DNA of 64,000 nucleotides, from the sequence record NZ_OX291475.1; one strand, given 5' to 3'. The position numbers and the translations under genes are program-made. The DNA is from a plasmid. The notes under the pieces are model-generated. The model did not search any database and was not told where the DNA came from. It was given only the letters and a program-made list of their open reading frames with translations. Below are positions 23,728 to 39,452 of the stretch, in pieces (position 1 is the stretch's first letter; every line of letters begins with the position of its first letter).

Positions 23728-24546
23728 TTATTTCAATGCTTTCATCGCTTCGGCCATTTTCCACAATGCATTATTGAGTTTGATATCACCCGTAATGCCA
23801 TTCACTGCCCGCGTTCGACTACGTTTCCCTTTCGCGTTTCGACCATCAATCCCCCCCTTGATCATGTTCTCCTGGACACGTTGATAGGTTGTCCATAAGT
23901 CCGGGTTATTGTCCTCTCTGCGCCTTGCCTGCAACACTTGTTCTGCGGAAATGGGTTGATGCGTGTCGAAGTATTTGTAACCCAATGCAGCATCTGCGTA
24001 GAGCATTTGCTCATCACGATTTAACGTTATGGATTTCATCTCTTCACGTGATTCTGTCACTTTATCGAACAAGCCCAACACCTCATAAGCCCCATCGATA
24101 ACTTGCCCAACCACGTCTCCCTTGTGAGGTACACGAACTTCACCGAACGTATCACCGCACACCAAACCGTTATTGCACACGAAACGGAAAACGCCGGGGA
24201 TCATTTGGTAACTGCTGCTGCCGTCATGACTGTTTAGCAAAATAATTTCCGGAACTTCATCATGTTGACCGAAGCCATTACGGCGCAGACGTAGCATATG
24301 GCGTGTATGCCCGCGCTTGCCTTCATCGCGAACTTTTGTCTGACAGGCGTAAAACGGTTGGAACCCTTCTTCCCGGAGTTTATCCAACAGGCTGATCGTT
24401 GGAATGTAGGTATAACGCTCACTACGGGAGGCATGTTTCTCCTCAGAAAAAACGCTGGGGACAAATGTTGCCAACTCGTCGTTGGTCAATGGGCGATCTT
24501 TACGAATGACATTTGCGCTACGGAAACCTGAATATAATCTTTGCAT
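23728..24546 (-). CDS. DUF932-family protein (YfjQ/YafZ-like, 272 aa)
   Basis: Sequence character and length match DUF932 proteins of leading regions and CP4-like islands. The true start is the ATG at 24546 (RBS GGGAGA). The listed ORF extends a further 47 codons through the upstream repeat. Confidence 0.6.
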   Translation of the reverse strand: MQRLYSGFRSANVIRKDRPLTNDELATFVPSVFSEEKHASRSERYTYIPTISLLDKLREEGFQPFYACQTKVRDEGKRGHTRHMLRLRRNGFGQHDEVPEIILLNSHDGSSSYQMIPGVFRFVCNNGLVCGDTFGEVRVPHKGDVVGQVIDGAYEVLGLFDKVTESREEMKSITLNRDEQMLYADAALGYKYFDTHQPISAEQVLQARRREDNNPDLWTTYQRVQENMIKGGIDGRNAKGKRSRTRAVNGITGDIKLNNALWKMAEAMKALK

Positions 24547-24990
24547 TTTAATTCTCCCAAACCCTGTTTCTGGTGTTACTCCCCTTTCCGGCGTCGCCGG
24601 GCGCGGAGCGTCTTGTGCTGTGACATTGAGACCGGTCCGGGGTACAAGACGAAACCACAAGGGCACCACCGCAAGCCGCATGCGCAAGCGAATGACTGAA
24701 AGGAATGAGTGCGAACGGGTGAGGATGGAGGCGCAAGCGAACCCTTGTGGGGTCGACGCCCCGGCTTAGCGTCTGTCACGGCAAAAGACACTCTGAGCCC
24801 TGCCTGTTGGCAAGGAGTGACATCGAAATAATTCACCTGGCAAAGCCAGGTCGCCTTAGTGTTGCCGCAATCTGTGGCAACAGTGAAAGCGGCGCCGGCG
24901 AATAGCCGGCTGCAAGCGTGGGGGTGATTCGGGAGGTGCCGGCTCAATGCCGGCGGCGCCCGATTGCCGCCCTAAGGGGCGGCACAATAA
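24547..24990. repeat. Structured GC-rich repeat element R1 (member of the R1-R7 family)
   Basis: It shares the blocks ttctggtgt..cccctt, ccgcaagccgca.gcgcaagcga, gagtgcgaacgggtgagga and cagtgaaagcggcgccggcga.tagccggctgcaagcg with the other copies. Internal hairpins are present. Confidence 0.7.
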
Positions 24991-24992
24991 AG

Positions 24993-25142
24993 CTAACAGG
25001 TATAACCACGCTGAATTTCCAGATAGCGCAGTAACTGCGCCCACTCAAACACTTTTAAGGCGGGGACACGCGCAGGTTTACGCGCATTACGTTGTTGCAA
25101 GATGTAGCGCCCGATCGTTTCGATATATTCATCAATAATCAT
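24993..25142 (-). CDS. Small ORF (49 aa), not in the ORF track
   Basis: RBS GGAGAG 6 nt before the ATG. It is the only coding-like frame between the upstream 150-aa gene and R1. Product is MIIDEYIETIGRYILQQRNARKPARVPALKVFEWAQLLRYLEIQRGYTC. Confidence 0.35.
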   Translation of the reverse strand: MIIDEYIETIGRYILQQRNARKPARVPALKVFEWAQLLRYLEIQRGYTC

Positions 25143-25202
25143 TTTTTGCTCTCCGTGAGAAATGATGTCCCGCTGCGTTATAGCAGCGGGAAACGAGGGG
25201 TT

Positions 25203-25655
25203 TTAGGCAGCAACTTGCGCCGATTCTGTTTCACGAAATGCACTCACACACGTCATGATCTGGCTGTGTGGCAGCGTGACATGATCGCGGAGTTTGAAAT
25301 GTTCGTCCCCGAGTTTGACGTAAATGTCGGTTATGTTACCGCTGTACATTTCCATCATTTTGAAGGACGAATAACCCGCGCTAAATTGCCAATCCAGCGG
25401 CGGCAACATTTCCAGCTTTTCCATGTATTCGTCTTTGCTGATGCGCTGAACCGGCAATTTTGCCGCATCATTCATCGCACGCAGGGCCGCGTCGAACGTC
25501 ACCAGTTCGCAAGCTGGCTTGACCTGTTGTAACTGCGCCAAGGTCTGGCCGCAGGATGTGACATACTCCCCATCCAGCCAGATAGCCACACCAACCGGCC
25601 ACATTGTCCCCGGCACATAAAAAACCATCTGCTGTTGTTGCTCGATCGTTGACAT
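25203..25655 (-). CDS. Hypothetical leading-region protein (150 aa)
   Basis: ATG at 25655 with RBS GGGAG. The listed ORF starts at a GTG 2 codons upstream. No recognisable motif. Confidence 0.5.
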   Translation of the reverse strand: MSTIEQQQQMVFYVPGTMWPVGVAIWLDGEYVTSCGQTLAQLQQVKPACELVTFDAALRAMNDAAKLPVQRISKDEYMEKLEMLPPLDWQFSAGYSSFKMMEMYSGNITDIYVKLGDEHFKLRDHVTLPHSQIMTCVSAFRETESAQVAA

Positions 25656-25682
25656 AACCACTCCCGTTAGTCAGTGAATCAG

Positions 25683-26130
25683 AAGCCGCGGCGACTTCTT
25701 TCTGGTGTATACCCCTTTTGGCTTTTTGCCGGCGCGGGGTGACTGGCGCCGTGACAACTTGACCGGGACGGGGTATCAGCTGACGATGCAAGGGCGGGAC
25801 CGCAAGCCGCACGCGCAAGCGAACGACCAACGGGAGAGAGTGCGAACGGGTGAGGATGCCGGCGAAGCGAACCCTTGTAACGGCAGCGCCCCGGCCCAGG
25901 GTCAGTCACGGGGACGGACGCCTTGCGCGTAGCCAGGGCTAAGGGGATACACCAGAAAGGGCCAGGCTTTTGCCTGGCGGCATCAGCGAACGACCGCACA
26001 AGCGGTCGGGCAGTGAAAGCGGCGCCGGCGATTAGCCGGCTGCAAGCGTTGGGTGCATTGGTCCCTGCCGGCTCAACGCCGGTTGGAACCAACAGGGCAG
26101 CAAAAACAGACAGAAAAGGGGCCATAGCCC
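25683..26130. repeat. Structured repeat element R2 (near-identical copy of R6)
   Basis: About 435 bp (25690-26124) match 36272-36706 with 1 mismatch. It contains the long imperfect palindrome ttctggtgtatacccctt ... aaggggatacaccagaa and several smaller hairpins. Confidence 0.8.
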
Positions 26131-26233
26131 GGGTTCTTGTTTGTCTTAACACAGACAGTCAGAAACGATTGCCCGGCAACATGCCAGGTAAGAAATAAGG
26201 GCAGCGAAAAAAGAAAACGCACGGCAGGACGAC

Positions 26234-26264
26234 GGATAAAAGAAACGGCGCCACAGGCGCCGTC
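26234..26264 (-). terminator. Rho-independent terminator downstream of higA
   Basis: On the - strand the hairpin acggcgcc/ggcgccgt is followed by TTTCTTTTAT. Confidence 0.45.
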
Positions 26265-26322
26265 TCACGATGTCAGTCGTTAGGGGTTGGTCAGACAGGT
26301 CACCAGAAACCCGTCCTTCCCT

Positions 26323-26766
26323 TTAGATAAACAAATCAGCAGGGACATCAAAACGCGTCGCCAGCGCCTTAATGTGCTGCACAGTCAACGCACGGCGACC
26401 ACTGAGAATGTTGCTGACATTGCTTTTAGACCCCAATTCATCTTCCAGATCAGCCGCTTTCAAACCATGCTGATCCATCAGGGTACGCAACGCGGCGACC
26501 CCGGTAGGGATCTCCGCCAAGCGGCGGTTAAACGCCTCAAATTCCGGGGCGCTGTTTTCATACTCTGTAATTTTGGCCGCAAGCGGTTCAAAAAGCGGGT
26601 TGCTCAGCTCGTCGCGATCGACAAGATACTCAATCAGCTCGAGGGCTTTTTTATATTCAGCCTCGCTTTTATCACCGGTCATCAGAGGAATGCATTTCAC
26701 CGCGTTGGCAAATGTCGCGATCATGCCTTCGGCACTGGCGGCGTCGATATGAGTGGCAACAGTCAT
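26323..26766 (-). CDS. higA: HigA-family antitoxin (XRE HTH)
   Basis: C-terminal HTH (SNVSNILSGRRALTVQHIKALATRF). ATGA overlap with higB. Confidence 0.75.
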   Translation of the reverse strand: MTVATHIDAASAEGMIATFANAVKCIPLMTGDKSEAEYKKALELIEYLVDRDELSNPLFEPLAAKITEYENSAPEFEAFNRRLAEIPTGVAALRTLMDQHGLKAADLEDELGSKSNVSNILSGRRALTVQHIKALATRFDVPADLFI

Positions 26767-27074
26767 TCTTTATGCTCCCTATAGTACTTGGTTAACTTGT
26801 CGTATTCGGCGTGAGTCGCAATGTGCTTTACAAAAAACTTTTGCTTTTCAAAATCAATGAAAGCCATCAACCGCAACGTGTTACCGGACACATCAATCAC
26901 CCACCATTTCTTACGGTATTTGAAGTTATCCAGTGACGGGATCGCTCTTTTCATCTCATCCGGGCTGTTAAAGGTCTTTTTTTCCAGAACCCTCATCAGA
27001 TCCAGAAGCGCCAACGCGCTATTAGGGTATTTCCCGGCAGCCTCATTAAACGGCTGTCTACTGATCACATGCAC
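26763..27074 (-). CDS. higB: HigB-family toxin (RelE/ParE fold mRNA interferase)
   Basis: The sequence MHVISRQPFNEA...SLDNFKYRKKWWVIDVSGNTLRLMAF...ATHAEYD is close to E. coli HigB. Confidence 0.8.
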   Translation of the reverse strand: MHVISRQPFNEAAGKYPNSALALLDLMRVLEKKTFNSPDEMKRAIPSLDNFKYRKKWWVIDVSGNTLRLMAFIDFEKQKFFVKHIATHAEYDKLTKYYREHKE

Positions 27075-27188
27075 CGCAAATCCCTTAGCCCTGTTTTCAT
27101 CTTGAAAACATTGTACCCTTTGGCGGATTTGTTTTCAAGTTGAAAACTATTATTTTCTTCATTGAGCGCGTATTTCAAGCCGCTCCCC

Positions 27189-27917
27189 TCATACCTTACG
27201 TGGCAGTTTATTCGGAATAAGCAACGCGTTGAATGCCCGTTCGTCATCAGTCAAATCAGCTTCAACCTGCTGCAATCTTTCCATCACCGCCCACAGCGCA
27301 TCAGATTTGTAATGCTGCAGGTTACAGCCAGCCATGCGCGGAAACCGCTCGAACCACGCGAAAAATCCCTCGGTCAGGTCGTCCTCGTAAATGTCACGCT
27401 TACTCCAGTACGCATACCATGCGCCGACCGTGCTTGGCGTTACAAACGCCAGTTCGACTTCGGCCTGCGCCAGCTGATTCTGATAGCGACGGCGCTGTTG
27501 CTGTTTTTCCCTCGACTGCCAACGGTCTTTCCGTTCGGCCTGCATATCCCACTTTCCTTCCCGCCGTTCCCGGCAAAGTTCGCCATAGGCGGGGAACAGG
27601 GTTGCAGCAACATCGCCGGACAGCGGAAGTGGACTATATTGGCCACCGCTCTCAATAAGCCTGTCCAGCGCCTCAATGTATTGCTGGATGGATGATCCAC
27701 CCCGCTCATCCGGGAAATAGTTTGACGATATTTGGCGAATATCGCTCGCTAAAATCTGCCCTCGACCGTTGTTCAGAACCTTGAAAAAGGCTTTGGCATA
27801 CGGAAACGCGGCGAGCCGCTTGCCCTGCTCTTTCTTACGCTCGACCAACACCACGGCATGGACGGCGGCTTGCTGATATTCGTTGACTGGCACCAGTGCG
27901 CGATTATTCGGGATCAT
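27189..27917 (-). CDS. psiA: PsiA-like plasmid SOS-inhibition protein A
   Basis: About 242 aa immediately after psiB with ATGA overlap. The N-terminus (ALVP..EYQQAAVHAV...AFPYAKAFFKVLN) is PsiA-like. ATG 27917 is preferred over the listed TTG. Confidence 0.7.
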   Translation of the reverse strand: MIPNNRALVPVNEYQQAAVHAVVLVERKKEQGKRLAAFPYAKAFFKVLNNGRGQILASDIRQISSNYFPDERGGSSIQQYIEALDRLIESGGQYSPLPLSGDVAATLFPAYGELCRERREGKWDMQAERKDRWQSREKQQQRRRYQNQLAQAEVELAFVTPSTVGAWYAYWSKRDIYEDDLTEGFFAWFERFPRMAGCNLQHYKSDALWAVMERLQQVEADLTDDERAFNALLIPNKLPRKV

Positions 27918-28378
27918 ACGCAAAATCCCCCCATTCTCAGCGCAACCGCCAGTTTCTCCGGGCGGGTGAATCCATGACGGTAGTACTCACCGACCACGTT
28001 CAATACCCGATTAATCGTCTCCGGCTCAAAATTGTCAGCGGTATGCACCCAGGCAATGCAGTCGCCCTGGTTAGCGGTTAACGATGTTCCCTGGTACGGA
28101 AGAACAGCAGACCAGCCCGGCACATCCGCCCCCGCGCTGCACAGATAAATCGCGGTAACATCATCCCCCTTCGGGCTAATCCGACACACCACGGGTACCT
28201 GCCCACAAAATTCGCACACCTCTTCTGCGTTCGCTACCCACCCCTTCGGCAGCGCCAGCGCACCCAGCACGGCATTGTTCAGCATTCTCCGCCACGCCCT
28301 GCCCCGATCGCGATACTCTTCCAGTTCGGTAGCACTCATCCCGGTTAACTGCTCAAGGCTCAATCTTTGATTTTTCAT
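27914..28378 (-). CDS. psiB: PsiB, plasmid SOS inhibition (anti-RecA) protein
   Basis: The 154-aa protein is collinear with F PsiB (MSATELEEYRDRG...NAV; CSAG...VPGW). Confidence 0.75.
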   Translation of the reverse strand: MKNQRLSLEQLTGMSATELEEYRDRGRAWRRMLNNAVLGALALPKGWVANAEEVCEFCGQVPVVCRISPKGDDVTAIYLCSAGADVPGWSAVLPYQGTSLTANQGDCIAWVHTADNFEPETINRVLNVVGEYYRHGFTRPEKLAVALRMGGFCV

Positions 28379-28418
28379 GGTTTTGCTCTGCCGCCTTCCG
28401 GCGGCAGCTCCCTGTCAG

Positions 28419-30455
28419 TTAGGCGGCAGCGCGGACGTCAGCAGCAGAATCAGTGTTAAGGGGAGTCCCCGTATCAGTGGAACTCTCCAGCACGGGCTGC
28501 GGCTGCGCTGCGGGTGACATGCAGGCGGGCAACCAAGAGGTCTCTTTCAGCACGGCCTCGGCGAACTCCGCCGCTTCTTTGCGTTTCATGCCCTCGGCGT
28601 CGCTGGCATTACCGGCGCGACCGGCACTGTTGAGTGCGTCAACAATCTGGTCTTTGGCGATGCGTGAAAAATAGTTGGCAGAGGTCGGTCTCCACCAGTC
28701 GCCGATCTGGAAGTTCAGCGCCTTCTCAACACGCGCCAGCTTGGTACCCACGCGGTTGTCATGCAATTGGCACTCTCTGCCATCGAGACCGTGGGAAACA
28801 CAGTAGGCCAGCAGCGCCAGCACGTCTTCCTGTGGCCATTCCAGTAACCAGTCGAACCCGTCGACCCACGCCTGCGGAAAGCGACTCAGCCAGCTCTCAT
28901 GCAGCGCGTTCAGCGTCTGGTTAGCGAGGCCGTTTTCACTGCCTGCGTCCGCGGATTGGTTCAGGCAGTTGCTGCGTTGGCTGTCCACGGAGGTATGCAG
29001 TTCGCTGAGATACCTCTTTCCAAAGATCCGGCGTGTCAATGTGAAGGTGTGCAGGACAAGAGCAACCATCGAATTTTGTGCCAGCGAGGCGGCAACGGCC
29101 AGAGTGCGTTCGGCAGACAGACTGTTGACCAACACCTGCGATAACCCTTTCTCTGACGGTGGGGTTTCTTTATTGGCTTTTTCACGCTCGGTTTTCTCAA
29201 CCAGCTTGATGTCTTCCATCTTCATCAAACCGCGTTGGATATTAATTTTTCCGTCTTGCAGATAGGCAACCACACCCGCCGTGTCGCGTACATCCAGCGA
29301 CCATTTGTTGATTTCAGCGTGTTCGTTGATCTCGGCAAGACGTGCGTTAATTTGCCCGATACGCGGGGTATGCTCCCACTCGTCGTCGGCATCAGCGCCC
29401 TCAAGCTGGCTTTCGAGCAATTTTTTCTCAGACTCCAGTTGATCAACTTCTGCATTCTGCTCGTCGCTCAACGTGGCATGGGCATAGAGCACGTCGAAAA
29501 CCTTTGCATCCTCACCCCAGCTCCTCACTTCCTTGCACCGGCCTTGTGCCCAAGCCCAACCTTCATCTTTAGCGACAACGTCCGCCGCGTCCTGCAGCTT
29601 GGCAAGCGCCATCGTTTCCAACTGCAACCGATTTGTCAGGATGATACTGTCAGCAAACAAATCTTCACGGGTTTCACCACCTGCCGCTTGGTAGGCTTCC
29701 AGCCCAACAAAATCGACCAAATCACTCTCTACCGCTGACACTTCATCGTTCAGCACGCTTTCACGCAACGCCTTGGGTGTACGGTATTGCTCGTAATAAT
29801 GACCCTTTTCCCATGCCTGAATCTGACGCGGGTGATCATCGGTTGCGCCCAGTGCGGCTAACTGGTCAAAATTGATGTCGTTGGTTTTCAGCAGTTCCAG
29901 CAGGGCTGGCGCGACGGTCGTCAACTTGAGGCATTTTTTGACATGAGCCGTGCTGTAACCAAGAATGGCCCCGATCCGTTCAACAGACGTTCCCTTTTCC
30001 GCCATGACGCGGAAGCTTTCCAGTTGGTCAGCAGGCTCCAGATTAGAGCGCTGTACGTTTTCCGCGATGGAGATGGCATGAGCGTCGTCTTCACACACCA
30101 CCAAGACGGCGACCCTGAACTCTGGCGTCACAGGAACGCCTGCCGCAGACCGTCCCTGCTCCATCAGCACGTTGAGGCCCAAACGGCGGGTTTCACCGGC
30201 AGCAACCCCGTACAACCCATCAGCCATGAGATACACGACGAGATTCTGCAGCAGCCCAGCGCCCTCAATACTGGCCGCTCGCCCTTCAATATCTGCGGTC
30301 GTACGGGGCGTTATGCGCGCATTGAGATCCGTCGCAGCCAGCTCTTTGAGCATGACATATTTCAACTCGGCCTGAGCCAAGGTCGCTTCGACAAACTGAG
30401 CAGCCTCAGTCTTCACGATTTTTTTTGCACTTGGTTTGGTCGTGGTCTTGGACAT
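28419..30455 (-). CDS. ParB-like nuclease domain protein of the leading region (679 aa)
   Basis: It has an N-terminal ParB/Srx-like domain and an HTH. The true start is at 30455 (RBS GGAGG). The listed 752-aa ORF includes 75 spurious codons from repeat R3. Confidence 0.7.
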   Translation of the reverse strand: MSKTTTKPSAKKIVKTEAAQFVEATLAQAELKYVMLKELAATDLNARITPRTTADIEGRAASIEGAGLLQNLVVYLMADGLYGVAAGETRRLGLNVLMEQGRSAAGVPVTPEFRVAVLVVCEDDAHAISIAENVQRSNLEPADQLESFRVMAEKGTSVERIGAILGYSTAHVKKCLKLTTVAPALLELLKTNDINFDQLAALGATDDHPRQIQAWEKGHYYEQYRTPKALRESVLNDEVSAVESDLVDFVGLEAYQAAGGETREDLFADSIILTNRLQLETMALAKLQDAADVVAKDEGWAWAQGRCKEVRSWGEDAKVFDVLYAHATLSDEQNAEVDQLESEKKLLESQLEGADADDEWEHTPRIGQINARLAEINEHAEINKWSLDVRDTAGVVAYLQDGKINIQRGLMKMEDIKLVEKTEREKANKETPPSEKGLSQVLVNSLSAERTLAVAASLAQNSMVALVLHTFTLTRRIFGKRYLSELHTSVDSQRSNCLNQSADAGSENGLANQTLNALHESWLSRFPQAWVDGFDWLLEWPQEDVLALLAYCVSHGLDGRECQLHDNRVGTKLARVEKALNFQIGDWWRPTSANYFSRIAKDQIVDALNSAGRAGNASDAEGMKRKEAAEFAEAVLKETSWLPACMSPAAQPQPVLESSTDTGTPLNTDSAADVRAAA

Positions 30456-30479
30456 GGGTAATTCCTCCATCAGTGATAA

Positions 30480-31035
30480 AACGTGCCCAGAATCCGCCCT
30501 ATCCGGCTTCTTTCTGGTGTATTCCCCTTCGGCTTTTTGCCGGCGCGGGGAGTCTGGCGCCGTGACACAAAGACCGGGACGGGGTATCAGCTGACAGAAC
30601 AAGGGCGGTGCCGCAGGCCGCAGCGCAAGCGAGTGAACGACCGGAGGGAAGGAAAGAGTGCGAACGGGTGAGGACACCGGCGAAGCGACCCCTTGTGCTG
30701 TCGGCGCCCCGGCCCAGCGTCTGTCACGGAGACAGTCTCCATGCGCTGCAGCCGCAGACTGGGGGAGACAGCGGAAAGAGCCAGGCCTTTAGCCTGGCAG
30801 CCTTAGCGACCGGCCGCATAGGCGGTCGGGCAGTGAAAGCGGCGCCGGCAATAAGCCGGCTGCAAGCGCCTTGCCTTGACCTTTAGCCATCAGACCCTAG
30901 CGATAGCCCGAAACCCGCAGGGGTTCGGCGGAGTCTGAGACGCCGGTAAACCGGCGGAACTGACGGAGTGGGGCTGACGACCCGGCACCGCCGGGGAGCC
31001 GAACGGGGGCCATAGCCCTTGATCTTCGAACATAA
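30480..31035. repeat. Structured repeat element R3
   Basis: It carries the family blocks accgggacggggtatcagctgac, gagtgcgaacgggtgagga, cagtgaaagcggcgccggcaataagccggctgcaagcg and the ggggccatagccc end block. Confidence 0.7.
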
Positions 31036-31136
31036 AGAGGATGTGAGCTAAAACAAAATCGACGCCAAACGCATCGCCCATGGCTCAGAAAATAAACGTC
31101 AGGGAGAAGATCCGGGCAGAACGCCCGGACAATAAT

Positions 31137-31643
31137 TCAATCAATTGCGCGAAAAATCAGCGCTCTCTCAGGGTGACTTATGATACTGACATAATCTTTT
31201 AGCGCATCCTGACGGTCGATAAGTCCCTGACAGGTCAACGCATATTCGCTTCCCATCTCGGAAACCTTCCAGGCAAGCTGATTCAATACAAACAGGGTCG
31301 CTATAATTCCAGCGGCATCGGCCGAGACCTCTGCATCGAAGTAGTTCCCCGGAATACTCAACCTGTACGAGCCCTCAGTCGGGGCAATGTAGCCCGTTGG
31401 CCGGGTTGTTATGATATCCGTCCACGGAGCAACATGGCCGCTGAGTCCGCGCGGAACCTCATAAAAAGCCCACATGCCCCCCTCGTAATTACTGTGTTTA
31501 TGCAGAAAGCTGATCGCCATACTCTCACCCAGCGGTGTCGCAAACAGCCTCGGAACAAAGGCCAAACGGCGTCGTGCATCGGTAACTTCGATTTTGGTCA
31601 CGGATCCCGCATCGGATTGGACGGTATTTACTGAGGTATTCAT
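31137..31643 (-). CDS. klcA: KlcA/ArdB-family antirestriction protein
   Basis: The 168-aa protein has the KlcA blocks FVPRLF..GE, GGMWAFYEV, NYFDAEVSADAAGIIATL and IFRAID. Confidence 0.75.
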   Translation of the reverse strand: MNTSVNTVQSDAGSVTKIEVTDARRRLAFVPRLFATPLGESMAISFLHKHSNYEGGMWAFYEVPRGLSGHVAPWTDIITTRPTGYIAPTEGSYRLSIPGNYFDAEVSADAAGIIATLFVLNQLAWKVSEMGSEYALTCQGLIDRQDALKDYVSIISHPERALIFRAID

Positions 31644-31654
31644 TGTTTCTCTCC

Positions 31655-31985
31655 GGCTTCTTTATGGTGCCCCTTTCCGCTATTTATGAGTGCGGGGAGC
31701 ACGTTGCTGTGACACCAGACAGCCCCGTTCCATCAGGGGCAGAAACAAGGGCGATACCGAGGCCGCAGCGCAAACCCCCGCCCCTCGGGAGGGGGTGCGA
31801 ACGGGGGAGGAAGCGGGCGTTAGCCTGTACCCTTGTTGATGAACCGGAACAGGGCAATGTCTGTCACAGCAAAAGTGATCACCGCCGACAGCACGTATAA
31901 CGAGGCTCAGAGTGAAGCCGTTGGCAACGGCTTTCCTTAGCGGCCGCCAATGGCGGCCAGTGAAAGCGATCTATCCTTCCGCCCG
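31655..31985. repeat. Structured repeat element R4 (shorter, degenerate copy)
   Basis: It has the blocks ttctttatggtg..cccctttcc, ccgcagcgcaaac, gtgcgaacggggg and cagtgaaagcg. It overlaps the 3' end of ORF 31879..32211. Confidence 0.55.
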
Positions 31986-32211
31986 CTTTGACGATATCAA
32001 TCGCGTGCTGGATAGCATCCCAGTTGATCCCAACATTGGCATCATGGTTGTCATGAACGATTTCCATCGCCGCCTCAATTTCGCAGGCAGTCAGCGCACC
32101 GTCTAACTCAAGAAAATCATCATCCAGCCAAAAACTGCCCACACACAAAGCGTCTTCGGGATAGCGTTTTAAACGGGTAATCAGCCCTGCAATCGTCATT
32201 CGTTCAAACAT
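31879..32211 (-). CDS. Hypothetical acidic protein (up to 110 aa). The 3' end is uncertain because it reads into R4.
   Basis: RBS AAGGAAA plus ATG. The first ~75 codons are coding-like. Confidence 0.35.
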   Translation of the reverse strand: MFERMTIAGLITRLKRYPEDALCVGSFWLDDDFLELDGALTACEIEAAMEIVHDNHDANVGINWDAIQHAIDIVKAGGRIDRFHWPPLAAAKESRCQRLHSEPRYTCCRR

Positions 32212-32264
32212 TGTGGTATTTCCTTTTGTGCCTAAAAGCGCCCCAAAGGGGCGAAACCGCCGTA

Positions 32265-32672
32265 TTACCCGCCGTAATTCGGGACGTTACCTAATACATA
32301 TTCCGGGCCAACAACCTCGGCGTAACCGTATTCATCACGCTCTTCTGACCATTCCAGATCGTCACTGGCACTGTCGATATATTCACCACACGCATAGACG
32401 TGATAACCGCAGAACCCCTCGCCTGCCTCACTGAACGTATGAATGACGTGACAGGAAAACTGTTTACTCAGCGCCCGGATATCGGCACATTCCGGAGGCG
32501 CCCAACGAGTATCAAAATCAATCTGCACAGTCCCTTCAAAGGCTGTCACATCAACATCGGCCTCGTTGAAAAAACTCACTTCTCCTTCGTCCCGGGCAAA
32601 ATCGGTCACGGCGGTCAGTTGATCTGGGTTTCCAGTCACGATAATTCGGTTTGCACACCAGTTAGGCATCAT
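32265..32672 (-). CDS. DUF1281-like leading-region protein (~136 aa)
   Basis: It resembles the small acidic Cys/His-containing proteins common in F/I-type leading regions. The ATG has RBS GGAGAA. The listed ORF extends into R5. Confidence 0.4.
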   Translation of the reverse strand: MMPNWCANRIIVTGNPDQLTAVTDFARDEGEVSFFNEADVDVTAFEGTVQIDFDTRWAPPECADIRALSKQFSCHVIHTFSEAGEGFCGYHVYACGEYIDSASDDLEWSEERDEYGYAEVVGPEYVLGNVPNYGG

Positions 32673-32689
32673 TCTTCTCCAGTCAGGTT

Positions 32690-33090
32690 GTCGGATATCG
32701 GCTTGCGCCGTAGCCAAAACACAGACGTGCGCAAAGCGGAGAATGCAGGGGCCGTACCGCAGGCCGCAGCGCAAATGACTGACCGCAGGGAGGGAGTGCG
32801 AACGGGAGAGGATACGGGCAACGCGAACCCTTGCAGGCGTAGCGGCACGGCTACGTTCGGGCTACGGCGTAAGCCCAGGCGACGCCATACCCTTTTGATC
32901 CCCGCCTGCAGGGCGGAAAAAGGGGAGAAAGCACGAAGGTTAATATCAGGGGATCGGTCGCGGCCGGTTCGAGGCCGGCAGTGACCGTTTGGGAGGAAAA
33001 AGGAAAATGACAATGCAGACGGGAGTGCGATGTTTCGGGGCCCCGGCTCTGCCGGGGATCCTTTTCGTGGCCAGCCCTGGCCACCATAAA
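32690..33090. repeat. Structured repeat element R5
   Basis: Blocks ccgcaggccgcagcgcaaatgactgaccgcagggagggagtgcgaacgggagagga plus downstream hairpins. Confidence 0.6.
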
Positions 33091-33097
33091 CCCTGTG

Positions 33098-33655
33098 CTA
33101 GTTCACGTCGATATTGACCAGTTGTTCCAGCACCTGCAGCAGCCTGGCACACGGATAACTTGACCAGACCGGCAACAACGTGGCCAGCGTAACAGCCTGG
33201 GCGGCCAGCATCAGCCGACGTGGCAAAAGCCCCTGCTCATAGTGCTTGACGGTCCGCAGCGAAACCCCCAGATAATCCGCGGTCTGTTTTTGCGTCCAAC
33301 CCAGCGAGCCCCGCCAGGCCTTCATACCTGCAGAAGGCATAACAAGCGATATCACGCCCCTGGACTGGGGTGTTGTCTGGTCATGGCGCGTTAGTGCCTG
33401 CAGTTGCAAAACAATTTGCGGTTGGTCCATCCGGAGCAAATCGGGGAGCAGGCGGATCAACATCAGTGTCTGGATCCCCAGACGAGCCGATCGGGACACG
33501 CCGCTATTTTCATAGGTTCGGTAAGTCCGTTCTGACACCCCCAGAGCCTGGGCAGCATCCTCTTGCCGCCAATGGCTACCAGGACGTAGCGAACGCGCCT
33601 CAGACAGCGTAAAGTATTGACCGGCACGCCATAATCTCAATTCAAAAACATCCAT
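33098..33655 (-). CDS. Transcriptional regulator with two XRE-type HTH domains
   Basis: There are two HTH segments (AQALGVSERTYRTYE and TADYLGVSLRTVKHYE). Confidence 0.55.
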   Translation of the reverse strand: MDVFELRLWRAGQYFTLSEARSLRPGSHWRQEDAAQALGVSERTYRTYENSGVSRSARLGIQTLMLIRLLPDLLRMDQPQIVLQLQALTRHDQTTPQSRGVISLVMPSAGMKAWRGSLGWTQKQTADYLGVSLRTVKHYEQGLLPRRLMLAAQAVTLATLLPVWSSYPCARLLQVLEQLVNIDVN

Positions 33656-33738
33656 GCATTGCCATCCCTTCTAAAAAACAGGCAATTTATGCACCCTGAA
33701 ACGCAATAACAAACACAGTAACCGGCAATAATTGCCCC

Positions 33739-34143
33739 TTAGAGCAATTTACCCAGTTTCTTACGCGCTTCACCAAGGGGAGCCAATTCGCTCGGCTGCT
33801 GAACAGGTTCGACCGGAACCACCGATCGACAATCATCACCGGACAACGCCGTAATCACGTCGCGGATCGCCGCCATTTCGGGTTTCCAGCCGGTTGTCTG
33901 GCCGACCAGGTTGACCAGCTGCTCGCTGGTCAACTGCCCGTTATACATCGTGGCCAACAACACCGGTAACCGTGGATCGAGCTGATGTAATGCCGCCGTT
34001 GTGATGATGGCATTACGCAGGAAATCCCCGCGTACTCGCTGCGAAATAGATTCAACCACATCCAGGGCATGGCGGTCAGCTTCGCAGTCCAGCTGCAAAT
34101 AGCTGGTAAATTTACGGCGGGTCTCACTGCTGTTATCGCTCAC
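33739..34143 (-). CDS. parR: ParR/StbB-like centromere-binding protein
   Basis: This small gene lies immediately downstream of parM. The GTG start has RBS AAGAGGG and overlaps the parM stop. Confidence 0.55.
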   Translation of the reverse strand: MSDNSSETRRKFTSYLQLDCEADRHALDVVESISQRVRGDFLRNAIITTAALHQLDPRLPVLLATMYNGQLTSEQLVNLVGQTTGWKPEMAAIRDVITALSGDDCRSVVPVEPVQQPSELAPLGEARKKLGKLL

Positions 34144-34145
34144 GG

Positions 34146-35120
34146 TTATCCCTCTTGTTTATACAATGCCATTTCACTCGCCAGCGCCATTTGTGGGCTT
34201 TCGACCAACGTTATACGCTCTGCCGGCAGTTTCCAGGCTTTTCTTACCGCAGATTCTATCAGCGGAGCGCCCCCACCGACCAGCCAAACCCGGTTAACGT
34301 GGCGGAATCGCGCCAGTTCGTTCACCACACGATCGCCAAGTCGGGTGATGCCGTGCTCTATCGCTGCGATAACGTCATCAACCCGGGACGCATCATTAAC
34401 CAGCTGCGACAAAAAGGCGCGATCATGGCGGCGCTGGATCACCGTATCAGCAACATAGGCGCTCGTATCGCTGTCCGCCATACGCAGCGCCGTCAACGTG
34501 GCCTGCGTCACCATCGAAACACCAATCGTTGGATTGCCGTGGATTGCCGTCACATCGTCGAACTGCCCGACAATGACTCCGGCATCGAGCGTCGTGCCGC
34601 CCAAATCGATAACCAGGGACGTTTCCAGCGGCCCGACATTCTCCCGCACCAGGGGAGAAAACACTGCAGGCAGGGATTCAGGCATCACTTCAACAGCCTC
34701 CACGGTAAAGGCCTCCCCCTTGTTCAACGTCACAGGTCGAAGCAGGTTGTCGATTTTTCGCTGAATATTAACCGTGTTTTTCTGACAGTCTTCGGTATAA
34801 AACTCACTGATCGGCAATGTGACGGTCAGCTTAACCGCTTGCGGCTCCACACCACTGTTTAGCAAGGCATGATGCACAGCCAGGAGGTTGGTATCACCGT
34901 ACTGATACTCAATGTTGGTCGTGCTGATCGCCTGTTGGCTGACATCGTCAAAGGTGTACTTCACGCCATCAACGAGATAGTTGAACGTGCGACGGCTGCC
35001 GATACCATCGATTTTCCATCCCTGACGGAAAGAATTGGGTGACAAGGTCGTGCGTAAATCCCCCTCCACATACCAGGCCAGTTTCACATTGGTAGAACCA
35101 TCATCACAGCAAATATGCAT
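34146..35120 (-). CDS. parM: ParM/StbA actin-like plasmid segregation ATPase
   Basis: It is collinear with R1 ParM over the full length (DDGSTNVKL, NLLAVHHALLNSG, VIDLGGTTLD, VWLVGGGA). Confidence 0.85.
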   Translation of the reverse strand: MHICCDDGSTNVKLAWYVEGDLRTTLSPNSFRQGWKIDGIGSRRTFNYLVDGVKYTFDDVSQQAISTTNIEYQYGDTNLLAVHHALLNSGVEPQAVKLTVTLPISEFYTEDCQKNTVNIQRKIDNLLRPVTLNKGEAFTVEAVEVMPESLPAVFSPLVRENVGPLETSLVIDLGGTTLDAGVIVGQFDDVTAIHGNPTIGVSMVTQATLTALRMADSDTSAYVADTVIQRRHDRAFLSQLVNDASRVDDVIAAIEHGITRLGDRVVNELARFRHVNRVWLVGGGAPLIESAVRKAWKLPAERITLVESPQMALASEMALYKQEG

Positions 35121-35124
35121 TTCA

Positions 35125-35330
35125 CACCCCTTTAGTTACTCAATTTGAGTATCATTATAAGAAAAACATAACCCACATCAAGATAAAGTTACTCATATTG
35201 AGTAAATAAAAGAACTCAATATGAGTTTTTATGTATTCACCCGCATCGTTACGCATCAAACTGAGTTACTTTATGATTGAAGAGCCCCCTACTGGCTCCA
35301 TTGATACTCAGCATGAGTATCAATGGAGCT
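35125..35330. repeat. parC: parC-like centromere/operator iterons upstream of parM
   Basis: There are at least five copies of a 12-14 bp motif related to ACTCAATATGAGT (tactcaatttgagta, ttactcatattgagtaa, aactcaatatgagtt, tgatactcagcatgagtatca). Confidence 0.55.
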
Positions 35331-35375
35331 TTGTCGCGCCGCGGTACTTTCATGAACGCGAACCAGGCGACACTT

Positions 35376-35747
35376 TTAACCCACCGACGTCATACAGAAC
35401 TCGGTTTGTGTAATGAGAAATTCGAGATGACCTTGTTTCTCGAGCAGGTGGTCAAAGGTCGGATCGTCCGACGGGAGGCGCTCCATAAAGTCGTCCCCAC
35501 CACATAACCGGCAGGCGTCCTCAAACACGTCACCACTGTCACGGATCGTCGGATCCAACCCTTCCGCATAGGCCAGTAACCGCTTTCCTTTGGTACGCGC
35601 TGCCGCCATCAAATACACCCCTTCATCTTTGACCAGCAGCACATCACACCCCTGTTGGCGTGCATGTGTGATCACCTCAAATGTCTTTTTACCTTTGAAA
35701 CAAATCTTGTTATTCATAGTGATATCCAATTTTTTAGCAGACGACAT
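35376..35747 (-). CDS. Hypothetical protein (123 aa)
   Basis: RBS AGGG plus ATG. Coding-like. Confidence 0.4.
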   Translation of the reverse strand: MSSAKKLDITMNNKICFKGKKTFEVITHARQQGCDVLLVKDEGVYLMAAARTKGKRLLAYAEGLDPTIRDSGDVFEDACRLCGGDDFMERLPSDDPTFDHLLEKQGHLEFLITQTEFCMTSVG

Positions 35748-35762
35748 TCATCGCCCTGATGA

Positions 35763-36257
35763 TTATTTGTAGACTTCGGCGATGACGGTCGTCAGTGCAT
35801 TCGGGTTCGACAACGGCTCCAGACGGGCACTCAGCAGGACCAGTTCTGTCGCCAGTAATCGGGCCGAAACGCTGAAATGTTGATCATGCTGCTTGCGACT
35901 ATTGATGTAGGTCAGAAGTGCGAATGCAGCATCCGGGTGACTTGCCTCCATCGCGGTAAACCCGGTGGTTTCCGCGTCAAAGTGCCCCATCGCTGTCAGT
36001 AATACTGCCTGTCGCCATAACGGAAAATCGTCATAGACACCGGCGGTGTGCAGGTGTTGCCCAAGGTGGTAGAGATCGGCCATCAAATCGGTGAAAACCG
36101 TGGTGACATCGCGATCATCGCCCGGGCATCGTTCCAGAAACGCCAATACGGCTTCCGCCGCCCCGGAGACGCGGACCAAAGCGGCCTCATCCTGCAGCGC
36201 ACTGTTCGTCTGGTTGCTGGCCAGTTCAGCCAGAACCTCTTTCAATGATTTCGTCAT
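35763..36257 (-). CDS. Hypothetical leading-region protein (164 aa)
   Basis: The true ATG is at 36257 with RBS GGGAGGG. The listed ORF adds 51 codons from repeat R6. Confidence 0.5.
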   Translation of the reverse strand: MTKSLKEVLAELASNQTNSALQDEAALVRVSGAAEAVLAFLERCPGDDRDVTTVFTDLMADLYHLGQHLHTAGVYDDFPLWRQAVLLTAMGHFDAETTGFTAMEASHPDAAFALLTYINSRKQHDQHFSVSARLLATELVLLSARLEPLSNPNALTTVIAEVYK

Positions 36258-36262
36258 AAACC

Positions 36263-36716
36263 CTCCCGTTTCGACTTCTTTCTGGTGTATACCCCTTTTG
36301 GCTTTTTGCCGGCGCGGGGTGACTGGCGCCGTGACAACTTGACCGGGACGGGGTATCAGCTGACGATGCAAGGGCGGGACCGCAAGCCGCACGCGCAAGC
36401 GAACGACCAACGGGAGAGAGTGCGAACGGGTGAGGATGCCGGCGAAGCGAACCCTTGTAACGGCAGCGCCCCGGCCCAGGGTCAGTCACGGGGACGGACG
36501 CCTTGCGCGTAGCCAGGGCTAAGGGGATACACCAGAAAGGGCCAGGCTTTTGCCTGGCGGCATCAGCGAACGACCGCACAAGCGGTCGGGCAGTGAAAGC
36601 GGCGCCGGCGATTAGCCGGCTGCAAGCGTTGGGTGCATTGGTTCCTGCCGGCTCAACGCCGGTTGGAACCAACAGGGCAGCAAAAACAGACAGAAAAGGG
36701 GCCATGCCCCCTTCCC
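36263..36716. repeat. Structured repeat element R6 (near-identical copy of R2)
   Basis: 36272-36706 match 25690-26124 with a single mismatch. Confidence 0.8.
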
Positions 36717-36717
36717 C

Positions 36718-37488
36718 TTAAACAGCGTGGAATAACGTCTTGAATTTCGTGACCATATCAACCATACGAAGTCTTTCGCTCCAGTCGTTGGCGTAATAAA
36801 TCGGGGTATGCCTGACCCGGGACATTTTCATCGTCAATGTATTTCCGGTATAGACCGAGGCCGGTAATCCCAATAGCGCAAGCTGGATAAAACACATATC
36901 CGCAGCCAAGGGATCGATATCTGTACAACGGATGTAGAGCACTTGTTGCGGGTTATACCCTTTAGAGAGCAGGTGTTCAGCAACGGCGATCACCATGCCG
37001 CCCGAACCACTGGCAGGTTCATCCAACGTGATAAACGGGCGATGCTCCAGCTCTTTAACATGGTCGCCAAGTGTCAGGGCGGCAATGAGTCGTGATACTT
37101 CACATGGCGTGAAAAATTGCCCCATCGATGACGAGCCAAATTCAAGCTCCATAAATATCCCGCCCAACAGGTCATCCATTCCCCCTTCCATCGCGCCGAT
37201 TAAGAAACAAAAAAGTTGCTGCATCCTCTGCAGATCAACAGCCTCGTATCGCTTACAAATCTGAACAGCTTCTTCCCTGCCCTCCTCTGACCGTACTCGC
37301 GCCAAATCGAGTTCGTTAGCCGCCAGGCGAATGAAGTCGCGGAAAACATCGAGACGACGGTGATAGGTCGCGATAACAGAGAACGTTTTGATGAATTGCT
37401 TCCTGGCTTCGCGTGGCGTCATATGCGGCGCACATTGAGCCGGGGTTTCAGGGGCTAACAGTGCATCGAAGGAAAGTTGGTTGCTCAT
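36718..37488 (-). CDS. HsdM-like (gamma-class) DNA methyltransferase-like protein; possibly an orphan or degenerate MTase
   Basis: It has motif X FFTPCEV and motif I LDEPASGSGGM. No clear (D/N)PP(Y/F) motif IV was found. RBS GGGAGA. Confidence 0.55.
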   Translation of the reverse strand: MSNQLSFDALLAPETPAQCAPHMTPREARKQFIKTFSVIATYHRRLDVFRDFIRLAANELDLARVRSEEGREEAVQICKRYEAVDLQRMQQLFCFLIGAMEGGMDDLLGGIFMELEFGSSSMGQFFTPCEVSRLIAALTLGDHVKELEHRPFITLDEPASGSGGMVIAVAEHLLSKGYNPQQVLYIRCTDIDPLAADMCFIQLALLGLPASVYTGNTLTMKMSRVRHTPIYYANDWSERLRMVDMVTKFKTLFHAV

Positions 37489-37499
37489 GGTGTGTCTCC

Positions 37500-37730
37500 C
37501 TTGGGAGGCAAGAACTCATTTTCTCGCCATGGCGCAAAAAAAAGACTCGCCAGTCAGGGATGTGGCAGGTACGACGGCCGAAGCCGCATGCGCAAACGAG
37601 TGGAACAACGTGAAAGGAGTGCGAACGGGTGACGCCGACGGCGCCAGCGAATACTTGCCACAGACCAGCGCGAGGCTAGGTTAAGCGCGGCGAAACATGA
37701 GATCTCGCGCACCATCAGACAACAATCAAA
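37500..37730. repeat. Structured repeat element R7 (short copy)
   Basis: Blocks gccgcatgcgcaaacga and gagtgcgaacgggtgacgcc. Confidence 0.5.
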
Positions 37731-37848
37731 GTAATATCATTTTAATATCATTACAGTCTCATAAAACAGGCTTGACACACAAACCCAAAAGACTATTATT
37801 TAAACCTCATTTCACTATCAAAGTAATATTAAAAAAAGGTAGAAACGA
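37715..37848. repeat. Partition-site/operator repeats upstream of parA
   Basis: The motifs tatcaaagtaatat and atcattttaatat occur here. They recur at 38505-38540, 38822-38860 and 39395-39440. Confidence 0.45.
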
Positions 37849-37849
37849 T

Positions 37850-38494
37850 ATGATTATAACAGTAGGTAACACCAAGGGCGGGGTAGGCAAAACCACTTTG
37901 GCAGTAAACATCGCTGCAGCACGAGCACAACAGGGTCGAGATGTATTATTGATAGATGGGGATCGACAAGGCACGGCTCAAATCGCTGTTGGTATAAGGG
38001 CAAATGATGATTCTCTGCCAGGCATCGCCTGTGTGTCTTATCCCGAAGGACCGATCCTTCGTACTCAAGTGCTCCAGCAAAAGATGAAATATGATGACAT
38101 CATCATTGACGCAGGCGGCAGAGACTCCACAGCGTTACGTGCTGCTTTAGTGCTATCCGATGCACTGTTGGTTCCATACCGCCCTGGAAGCTTCGATGTT
38201 TGGGCTCTTGAAGACATATCTGCACTTATCAAGGAAGCGCGGAGTGTGAGAGATGGGTTGAACGTTTTCGCTATTATCAACGCTGCTGACTCCAATCCAC
38301 ACTCGATTGATAATCGAGAGGCTGCAGAAGTGATTGCAGACTTCCCAGAACTGACACTAATCCCCAAACATATTGTGGCGCGTAAAGCGTGGTCGAATGG
38401 GGCAGCATCAGGGAAATGTACGCTTGAAATGAAACCAAGAGATCCCAAAGCTGACGCTGATCTGGAAAGATTAATTTCAATCTTATTTTCATAG
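37850..38494 (+). CDS. parA: ParA/ParF-type partition ATPase (small type Ib)
   Basis: Deviant Walker A motif [11 protein letters not shown]. Length is 214 aa. Confidence 0.8.
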
Positions 38495-38552
38495 TCATTT
38501 AACACTATTTGAATATCAAAGTAATATTAATAAACGATTAAAGAGGTAATAA

Positions 38553-38825
38553 ATGGCTATTGTAAGACCCACGAAAAAACACACTACCCCTGCTGAAGAC
38601 AGCGCAGCAGAAGCCTTTATAAATTCGGCTCCAGATGGCGCGGCAACGCGAAGAAAGGGCGTAGTAAAGGGCAAACGCCAACAGATCACGTTAACGATAG
38701 ATCCTGAGATTTTGGACCGGCTCGATGTAAAAGCCGCTGAAGATGGCGTGTCTCGGGCTGCGCTCATCAACATCGCAATTCGCCAGCTATTGAACCGAGG
38801 AGCCACAGTTGGAGGCGGGAGTTAA
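38553..38825 (+). CDS. ParG-like RHH centromere-binding protein
   Basis: This 90-aa protein lies downstream of parA and has a C-terminal RHH-like segment (ITLTIDPEILDRLDVKAAEDGVSRAALINIAIRQLL). Confidence 0.55.
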   Translation: MAIVRPTKKHTTPAEDSAAEAFINSAPDGAATRRKGVVKGKRQQITLTIDPEILDRLDVKAAEDGVSRAALINIAIRQLLNRGATVGGGS

Positions 38826-38905
38826 TTAACTATCATTTTAATATTAAAACACTATGAAAACAGGGTTGTTTGAATTGCATTTTGGATGGTAATTGAGAGG
38901 AATAA
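38822..38905. repeat. Second array of the par-type repeats
   Basis: The motif atcattttaatattaaa lies between parG and the 142-aa gene. Confidence 0.4.
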
Positions 38906-38908
38906 CCA

Positions 38909-39337: not shown

Positions 39338-39452
39338 CAGAATAGTTGAGCATATCAATACACTCATCGCCAATCAAAACAGGATTACTACAACATTAAT
39401 AAGATACATTTTTGATATCATTTTAATATTAAAGTGATATCAAAAACACAAT

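Follow-up and report, generated by a model that had tools for sequence, protein, structure and literature searches.

Seven related hairpin elements upstream of leading-region genes of a Serratia plasmid as predicted single-stranded DNA promoters

Why should a single plasmid region contain seven copies of a long, GC-rich, non-coding element, each in front of a different gene or operon? The question is raised by a stretch of 64,000 nt of the plasmid record NZ_OX291475.1 (the window; all coordinates refer to the + strand as given), in which the elements, R1 to R7, are located between 24,547 and 37,730. The original prediction was that they are structured repeats that function as hairpin promoters in single-stranded DNA (ssDNA), of the type known as Frpo or ssi, when the plasmid enters a recipient. 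Our sequence analysis indicates that each element is very probably an ssDNA promoter of the class 2/3 family, the family of ssp2 and ssp3 of the F plasmid. The segment 24000–38000 is 100% identical to the Serratia marcescens QC08 plasmid pQC08_2 (AP028558.1, 93.9 kb), which has a MOBP relaxase and is of the type MPF_I.

A repeat finder connected all seven regions. The block GAGTGCGAACGGG[T/A/G]GAGGA is present in seven copies in register, AGCCGCA.GCGCAA is found in 7/7 copies, and CCCTTG follows 30–34 nt past the anchor GCGAACGGG, again in 7/7. The repeats and their ordered blocks are therefore real, but some of the blocks that had been ascribed to the whole family are absent from some copies. 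TTCTGGTG..CCCCTT is confined to R1–R4 and R6, CAGTGAAAGCGGCGCCGGC..GCCGGCTGCAAGCG occurs only in R1, R2, R3, and R6, and GGGGCCATAGCCC is present in R2 and R3, with a variant form in R6. When the intergenic regions were aligned with MAFFT, a common core of about 190 nt (185–195 nt) was apparent in all seven elements (module A). A covariance model, described below, detected exactly seven copies in the window, all of them on the + strand, and the distance from the match to the start codon of the next – strand gene is 27–93 nt, so that the predicted common orientation and location directly 5′ of a gene or operon hold for all seven. Two boundaries had been drawn too far: R4 (to 31985) runs about 100 nt into an open reading frame (ORF) annotated at 31879–32211, and R7 (to 37730) enters parA (37697–38494). 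Coding potential of the ORFs within the repeats was rejected: they match no Pfam family, and the record does not annotate them. Additional matches to GCGAACGGG at 39602 and 42742 are located inside coding regions and lack the other blocks, and were therefore rejected as chance matches. R2 (25692–25991) and R6 (36272–36571) are 100% identical over 300 nt and have different downstream genes, which suggests that copies recently recombined or underwent gene conversion with each other.

Folding of the + strand cores as DNA resulted in one common long imperfect hairpin. For R2, the + strand has a folding energy of −76.5 kcal/mol (z −6.6), versus −58.1 kcal/mol (z −3.7) for the complement, and the outer stem that had been proposed was recovered, with 25699–25716 pairing with 25941–25957 at a distance of 225 nt. 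The hairpins of R1, R3, and R7 have energies of −57, −79, and −37 kcal/mol, respectively. A homology-free scan of the + strand in 300-nt segments from 20 to 42 kb yielded a mean of −43 ± 12 kcal/mol, and six of the seven elements represent the deepest minima of this region (R1 −82.4, R2 −84.7, R3 −85.0, R4 −75.9, R5 −68.9, and R6 −85.7 kcal/mol). R7 stays above −62 kcal/mol and does not stand out, and another low run, in psiB and the nuclease gene, reaches −66.5 kcal/mol. The published threshold for the mining of ssDNA promoters is <−75 kcal/mol per 300 nt; R1, R2, R3, R4, and R6 pass it (−75.9 to −85.7), R5 and R7 do not.

Covariation backs the same stem in all copies. In an alignment of eight sequences, i.e. 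the six distinct window copies and two published candidates, 23 pairs show compensatory change. For 49 distinct homologues from 13 plasmids, 90.6% of the cells are paired, compared to 34–42% when the 3′ partners are slid, and compensatory changes are present in 39 of the 46 pairs, a value matched by none of 500 shuffles. The alignment for covariation that had been suggested as a check thus showed a conserved structure with abundant compensatory change. The consensus pairs include 113 G.T wobbles versus 29 A.C (p = 6.5e-13), and 32 of 45 sequences have G.T at one of the apical pairs. An A.C pair is the wobble of the other strand, and the excess of G.T therefore argues that the structure is selected on the + strand.

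The model was seeded with the six distinct window copies and the candidates “Frpo* 1” and “Frpo* 3”, without any sequence of F or pESBL. It matched F (locus L005) at 12477–12722 (ssp2, in the spacer 5′ of the ArdB/KlcA gene) and at 8652–8833 (ssp3, upstream of the methylase operon), and it matched pESBL 5′ of klcA, ardA, and the DUF1281/M.EcoGIX operon. All of these matches are on the transferred strand, with E-values of about 1e-15 to 1e-16, and no other match was found in the 112 kb of F and pESBL. They coincide exactly with the class 2 (klcA, ardA, ssp2) and class 3 (M.EcoGIX, ssp3) ssDNA promoters, classes that were defined by RNA-seq of transconjugants and 5′ rapid amplification of cDNA ends (RACE) (Wen et al., NAR 2025, PMC12672017). 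These homologues are zygotically induced, have starts determined by 5′ RACE, and stay on longer in uvrD mutants; the mapped starts are described as located within the hairpin and as fitting the −35/−10 predictions, and the elements of F and pESBL turn off upon conversion to duplex DNA (PMC12672017). ssp2 was also found independently in a further paper. The covariance-model search thus placed the window elements in one family with validated ssDNA promoters.

Class 2 (F ssp2 5′ of yfgB/ardB; the klcA and ardA elements of pESBL) matches the model with E-values of about 1e-15 and shares with the window copies the block order GCCGTG.C, AAGCCGCAGC, GA(A/C)CGGGTGA, GGCGAAGCG, CCCTTG, CCCGG, and CACGGC. 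The elements are located on the same strand, immediately in front of leading genes, among them anti-restriction genes of the klcA type, and have a GC content of about 60–68%. They differ by an insert of about 60 nt in the apical loop, which the window copies lack, and by a core identity of 49–60%. Class 3 (F ssp3, pESBL DUF1281/M.EcoGIX) matches equally strongly, with 79–81 bits, and has a short apical loop like the window copies; it precedes a methylase-containing operon, comparable to R7 and R5, and its core identity is 48–58%. Class 3 has been described as unlike all other hairpins (Wen et al. 2025, PMC12672017). This distinctness does not hold under a structure-aware model, and classes 2 and 3 and the window copies form one family. 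The two seed candidates “Frpo* 1” and “Frpo* 3” come from a metagenome of the insect gut and had been listed with low certainty (Samuel et al., Nature 2024, Supplementary Table 2). Their blocks can be aligned one by one with those of R5 and of the remaining window copies; the candidates had been proposed only by inspection of hexamers and folds and rated as having limited similarity to Frpo, without a family model, covariation, or a link to experimentally validated promoters.

Class 1 Frpo/ssi elements (F Frpo1/2, ColIb-P9 ssi1-3; Masai and Arai 1997) follow the same logic, i.e. a hairpin of the transferred strand mimics a duplex promoter, and a plasmid likewise has several of them ahead of its leading genes. 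However, the class 1 hairpin is A/T-rich (AAAAAGTTTT) where the window family has a GC-rich conserved core, and the two have no sequence relation. An nhmmer profile of class 1 gave E = 5 for the window versus 1e-64 to 1e-94 in F, pESBL, and the locus L132; its seven copies are distributed over F, pESBL, and an IncF plasmid, and the window and its close relatives have none. A blastn comparison of F Frpo and ColIb-P9 ssi1-3 with the window yielded one short chance match. The window elements are therefore not homologous to Frpo/ssi in the strict sense (class 1).

The 3′ arm of every copy contains CCCTTG, of which CTTG is kept in 40–42 of the 42 distinct full-length homologues. A −10-like hexamer follows 15–16 nt downstream (TAGCGT, CAGGGT, CAGCGT, CAATGT, TACGTT, or TAGGTT in the window; TAAGAT and TAACGT in the copies of F and pESBL). 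Its second-position A is kept in 76% and its last T in 74% of the sequences. The hexamer is located in an internal loop of the consensus structure, and the A is unpaired in most window copies. Of the conserved −35/−10 pair that had been expected within a stem, the −35 half is clear, with an invariant TTG, and the −10 half is weak.

The seven hairpins, all on the + strand, their predicted −35 and −10-like boxes, and the – strand genes behind them are as follows. The R1 hairpin (24567–24828, core 24606–24794, 174 bits) precedes the DUF932 gene (23728–24546), with the −35 box TTGTGG at 24745–24750 and the −10-like box TAGCGT at 24767–24772. R2 (25697–25960, core 25737–25924, 178 bits) precedes ORFs of 150 amino acids (aa; 25203–25655) and 49 aa (24993–25142); its boxes are TTGTAA (25875–25880) and CAGGGT (25897–25902), with A and G of the latter unpaired. 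R3 (30509–30783, core 30548–30742, 170 bits; TTGTGC 30693–30698, CAGCGT 30715–30720) stands 5′ of the ParB-like nuclease-psiB-psiA(-higBA) operon, the start codon of which is at 30455. The hairpin of R4 (31695–31882, 138 bits; TTGTTG 31833–31838, CAATGT 31855–31860) is shorter, has no outer stem, and is followed by the Antirestrict/KlcA gene (31137–31643, Pfam Antirestrict). R5 (32696–32880, inverted repeat I1, 172 bits) precedes the DUF1281_C gene (32265–32669) and the annotated 110-aa ORF (31879–32211), and its boxes TTGCAG (32831–32836) and TACGTT (32852–32857) have a spacer of 15. R6 (36277–36540, core 36317–36504, 178 bits; TTGTAA 36455–36460, CAGGGT 36477–36482) is located 5′ of a 164-aa ORF (35763–36257). 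R7 (37515–37703, 126 bits), the most divergent and least stable copy, precedes the N6_Mtase gene (36718–37488), with TTGCCA at 37655–37660 and TAGGTT at 37677–37682, in a loop of 7 nt.

All annotated genes between 23.7 and 37.5 kb are on the – strand. Their order is DUF932, two small ORFs, higBA, psiA, psiB, a 678-aa ParB-like nuclease, Antirestrict (KlcA/ArdB-type), the 110-aa ORF, DUF1281_C, a helix-turn-helix (HTH) gene (33098–33655), parR/parM, DUF3085, the 164-aa ORF, and N6_Mtase, and it resembles the leading regions of F and the IncI1 plasmid pESBL. To the left, the genes for the MOBP relaxase (20365–22320, – strand) and a mobA/nikA-like protein (22331–22636, – strand) are followed by a mobC/yggA-like gene (22905–23246, + strand). 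Between mobA and mobC is a gap of 268 nt, which can be aligned with the reverse complement of the pESBL oriT (R64 type). An R64-type oriT core at 22679–22760 (+ strand) was identified by alignment with the oriTs of pESBL, Y. ruckeri, and pGDT4, close to the position of about 22.7 kb that had been predicted for the oriT, toward which the genes point. It contains a NikA-type inverted repeat (GGGGTGTCGGGGC..GCCCTGACC) and the nick region CACATCTGG|TCCCG; in the alignment of the nick region, the window has CACATCTGGTCCCG and pESBL CACATCCTGTCCCG. From this alignment and the RP4/R64 nick-region consensus, the nick is predicted at about 22754/22755. The relaxase and mobA genes lie to the left of oriT, and the mobC/yggA-like gene is the first leading gene to the right, as the yggA/mobC-like gene is in R64. 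The leading region would thus extend from about 22.9 kb upward, with the + strand as the transferred strand and the template of all leading genes. Because oriT is co-linear with that of R64/pESBL and transfer proceeds 5′ to 3′, the homology supports the predicted entry of the + strand first.

The following mechanism would best explain these results. Judging from the oriT homology, the + strand would enter the recipient with its 5′ end first, starting from the nick at about 22.75 kb. Prior to complementary synthesis, each element would fold into an imperfect hairpin of 185–265 nt, a structure shown by folding and covariation. The 3′ arm would stand in for the non-template strand, with C-TTG as the −35 box and, 15–16 nt further on, the weak −10 box [T/C]AnnGT. 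The latter, in an internal loop with its A usually unpaired, would be pre-melted, and the exposed A at −11 would be suited for capture by sigma-70. By homology to the elements with mapped starts, host sigma-70 RNA polymerase would bind the pseudo-duplex, use the 5′ arm as template, and leave the hairpin at its base into the adjacent – strand gene, with predicted leaders of about 70–100 nt. When the region becomes double-stranded, the hairpin and the −10 bubble would vanish; no conventional promoter is predicted in the duplex elements, so that expression would stop. The outcome would be a burst of anti-restriction, SOS-inhibition, nuclease, methylase, and unknown early proteins, while parMR and higBA in the same region would retain ordinary promoters.

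The reading of the elements as hairpin promoters on the transferred strand is supported by structure, + strand specificity, membership in the model family, and distribution. Several observations weigh against it. The −10-like hexamers are poor, with two to three of six consensus matches, so that their assignment as promoter boxes is based on where they are located, on the conserved A and T, and on homology. Transcription data come from the F and pESBL homologues. The window cores are only 48–60% identical to ssp2/ssp3, and the E-values of the model are rough. R5 and R7 fold modestly, with z-scores of about −1.9 that derive from a simpler swap shuffle (the exact z-scores are those of R2). The alignment used for counting pairs was fitted to the model and favours structure, although the margin is large. 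The apical core is more conserved than the promoter hexamers, for which the mechanism gives no reason. Lastly, an Agrobacterium plasmid has copies of the core on both strands.

An alternative explanation would be that the elements are ordinary double-stranded DNA promoter/operator cassettes, by which one plasmid repressor controls all leading operons. Repeated upstream regions typify such regulons, as exemplified by the CUP repeats of IncN plasmids (pKM101/R46; Delver and Belogurov 1997), which are 300–450 nt long, have one orientation, and are located upstream of ardA, ardB, and ccg genes; they are described as duplex promoters with operator sites for ArdK (PMC6289460). Moreover, the HTH gene is present in the region, and a repressor layer could coexist with ssDNA activity. 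However, a scan for sigma-70-type duplex sites found none on the gene (–) strand within any of the elements, and the compensatory changes of the hairpin and the strand-specific G.T pairs are not needed by a duplex operator. In addition, the model has no match in R46, and the homologues in F and pESBL are off after duplex conversion. We therefore regard duplex cassettes as improbable. No rightward (+ strand) promoter was predicted for the elements either, i.e. the promoter on the opposite strand that would have spoken against hairpin promoters was not found. Good sigma-70-like sites on the – strand were found 5′ of parM (35181–35154) and higBA (27178–27110), which suggests that the maintenance genes (parMR, higBA) and the transient early genes are wired differently.

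CUP repeats as members of the same family were rejected: the model had best E-values of 0.1–1.4 in R46, and without filters from 21.5 to 28.5 kb its best E-value was 0.1, with no match on a CUP copy; the search did not cover the ArdK operator motif. R46 (locus L136) contains a second repeat in three copies (GCCGCAGGCCGGAGG..CGAAGGGGCGAGAC..; 22066–22164, 23777–23880, and 26282–26387), which is faintly similar to the apical core, with non-significant best E-values of 0.2–1.4.

The primary role of the elements could also be in DNA processing, as roadblocks or as priming sites (ssi) for synthesis of the complementary strand. F ssp2 stalls complementary-strand synthesis at its stem until UvrD opens it, and class 1 transcripts are able to prime DNA synthesis (Fraikin et al., bioRxiv 10.64898/2026.01.09.698686). 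The extreme stability of R1–R4 and R6 would fit such a role, as would the conserved apical core, which a promoter function leaves unexplained. In contrast, ssp3, which matches equally well, has no roadblock activity, and this activity is known only for ssp2 (bioRxiv 10.64898/2026.01.09.698686). Every copy is positioned close to a start codon, in the sole orientation that allows transcription of that gene, and the CTTG of the −35 box is invariant. DNA processing as the primary role is thus about as improbable as duplex cassettes, and it would more plausibly be an additional function than a competing explanation; speculatively, the very stable copies R1–R4 and R6 may slow complementary-strand synthesis in the way of F ssp2.

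Even less probable is a role as structured RNA, be it in the leader of the – strand mRNAs or in an antisense or small RNA transcribed from the + strand. A long covarying hairpin would also fit an RNA, and the 5′ arm is predicted to be partly included in the mRNA leader. However, a search of the whole window against Rfam 15 at the gathering threshold resulted in 0 matches, and the G.T pairs favour the + strand, so that a – strand mRNA would receive A.C mismatches. An RNA of the + strand would require a rightward promoter and would be antisense to the end of the upstream operon, and the starts of the homologues are described as located within the hairpin. Equally remote is the idea that the elements are recombination modules that shuffle cassettes between leading regions, with incidental promoter activity: the identity of R2 and R6, the variant with an insert of about 60 nt that accompanies ardA in three plasmids, and the gain or loss of a 9.7-kb block mediated by Frpo repeats (PMC3817090) would fit, but homologous recombination requires neither a conserved hairpin nor a fixed strand or distance to the start codon, and any shuffling would more plausibly follow from the repeats.

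The distribution of the family is in accordance with ssDNA promoters of leading regions. Three fully covered MOBP/MPF_I plasmids of Serratia and Yersinia (L002, L126, and L127) have 5–9 copies each, the MOBP Serratia plasmid L129 has nine, and an Edwardsiella locus that ends just past DUF932 (L128) has one. Copies are also present in an Aeromonas F-type plasmid, an IncF Citrobacter plasmid, an Agrobacterium plasmid, and an unclassified MOBP plasmid with backbone genes of the korA/incC/korB type (pSN0729-62). Partial matches to the apical part only were found in IncW R7K (L003, 9000–9087) and in an IncP plasmid outside of the klc/kle region (L131, 1744–1844). The Agrobacterium plasmid pAtCFBP6625c (L130) has copies at 14946–15124 (+), 9065–9151 (–), and 29424–29512 (–), the latter two apical-only, and because of the two orientations these cannot all lie on one transferred strand. 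The other 48 copies, in 12 plasmids, all share one orientation within a given plasmid, and the genes have the opposite orientation and point to oriT. The core identity among the window copies and their relatives is 48–82%, and that between ssp2 and ssp3 is 54%.

Matches to R2 in PLSDB are located in leading regions beside relaxase genes and oriT in every plasmid inspected that had the region in view, and no E. coli-type plasmid was among the BLAST matches listed. Among 5426 complete E. coli genomes, the F homologue was located at 8421 places on plasmids and at 88 on chromosomes. This speaks against a chromosomal repeat of the REP/ERIC type (no set of Serratia chromosomes was searched), which the original prediction had named as an outcome that would argue against hairpin promoters. 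A scan of genome contigs with GCGAACGGGNGAGGA was uninformative about the chromosomal distribution, because matches to 14 bases in 596 Gb are mostly due to chance. Its sole real-looking result was a contig of Candidatus Arsenophonus triatominarum (L027) with weak core-only matches at 4601–4659, 5943–5995, and 7250–7302, on one strand and about 1.3 kb apart, which may represent a degenerate leading region of an insect symbiont.

The variant with the apical-loop insert of about 60 nt was observed in L126 (14365–14607), L127 (17046–17288), L135 (14040–14284 and 7093–7337), and L005 (12477–12722). Three plasmids have it immediately in front of ardA, and pESBL and F have it 5′ of klcA/ardB; this association suggests that promoter and gene move as a cassette.

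The element type was flagged in 2024 (Samuel et al.) and validated in 2025–2026 (Wen et al. for 2025), and the reading is therefore no longer new; the copies of pQC08_2 are further members. What is new is modest: an array of seven copies in which Frpo has been replaced entirely, the union of classes 2 and 3 and “Frpo*” across many backbones in one model, and an accessory hairpin. In this clinical Serratia plasmid, KlcA-type anti-restriction, PsiB/PsiA, the ParB-like nuclease, the methylase, DUF932, and several uncharacterised proteins make up an early-entry programme, the whole of which appears to depend on seven copies of one ssDNA promoter family, without Frpo. The seven variants (six distinct sequences) form a natural series from −85 kcal/mol per 300 nt to weak, which could help to separate promoter strength from roadblock activity. 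The covariance model spans identities of 50%, where BLAST fails, joins the published classes 2 and 3, and could be used to annotate leading regions and the polarity of the transferred strand in plasmids without a recognised oriT. Four ORFs without a Pfam match (150, 49, 110, and 164 aa) belong to the element-driven units, two of them directly behind an element, and by their position are candidates for new anti-defence or establishment proteins.

The apical core, AAGCCGCA-GCGCAA ... GCGAACGGGTGAGGA ... GGCGAAGCGAA, has an invariant CCG/CGG helix and a conserved G.T pair, and it recurs in IncF, IncI, IncW, IncP, and Aeromonas plasmids, pSN0729-62, and Agrobacterium plasmids. A tentative extension, which we consider possible rather than probable, would be that this core is a separate recognition module for a host factor that acts on ssDNA (for example RNA polymerase alpha/sigma contacts, SSB, or UvrD), that classes 2 and 3 are one ancient superfamily by which Frpo was fully replaced in this Yersiniaceae plasmid lineage, and that the accessory hairpin, module B, is a second, previously undescribed ssDNA element.

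Module B (CAGTGAAAGCGG...; CAGTGAAAGCGGCG[stem-loop]CTGCAAGCG) accompanies only R1, R2, R3, and R6 in the MAFFT alignment, on the + strand at 24881–24918, 26011–26048, 30831–30868, and 36591–36628, respectively. In this plasmid lineage it lies about 75–90 nt 3′ of module A (about 90 nt for R1) on a constant strand, and it is also present in L002, L126, L127, and L129. Its flanks are invariant, and its stem varies in a compensatory manner (CCGGC/GCCGG, CAGGC/GCCTG, CGAGC/GCTCG, CGGTC/GACCG, and CTGCCG/CGGCAG). A similar motif follows the class-1-like “Frpo* 5-7” of Salmonella. A terminator scan identified a hairpin resembling an intrinsic terminator at 26242–26266 (– strand), which ends the higA unit just before R2, and similar sites at 36692–36716, 31060–31076, and 25168–25191. 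As these hairpins close the preceding units, the layout of a unit is terminator, accessory module, hairpin promoter, and gene.

The distal part of R3 (30872–31020; ..GCCATCAGACCCTAGC..CCCGAAACCC..) is a separate repeated module, which was also observed in L132 (3696–3839, 15267–15416, and 18678–18825) and L135 (8666–8781 and 15009–15130). It flanks class 1 Frpo copies in pESBL and the IncF plasmid, which indicates that the upstream regions are mosaics of several modules. At the far end of the region, AT-rich iterated repeats (TATCATTTTAATAT.. and related sequences, in both direct and inverted orientation) lie around parA and the next small genes (37724–39447) and are probably partition or operator sites.

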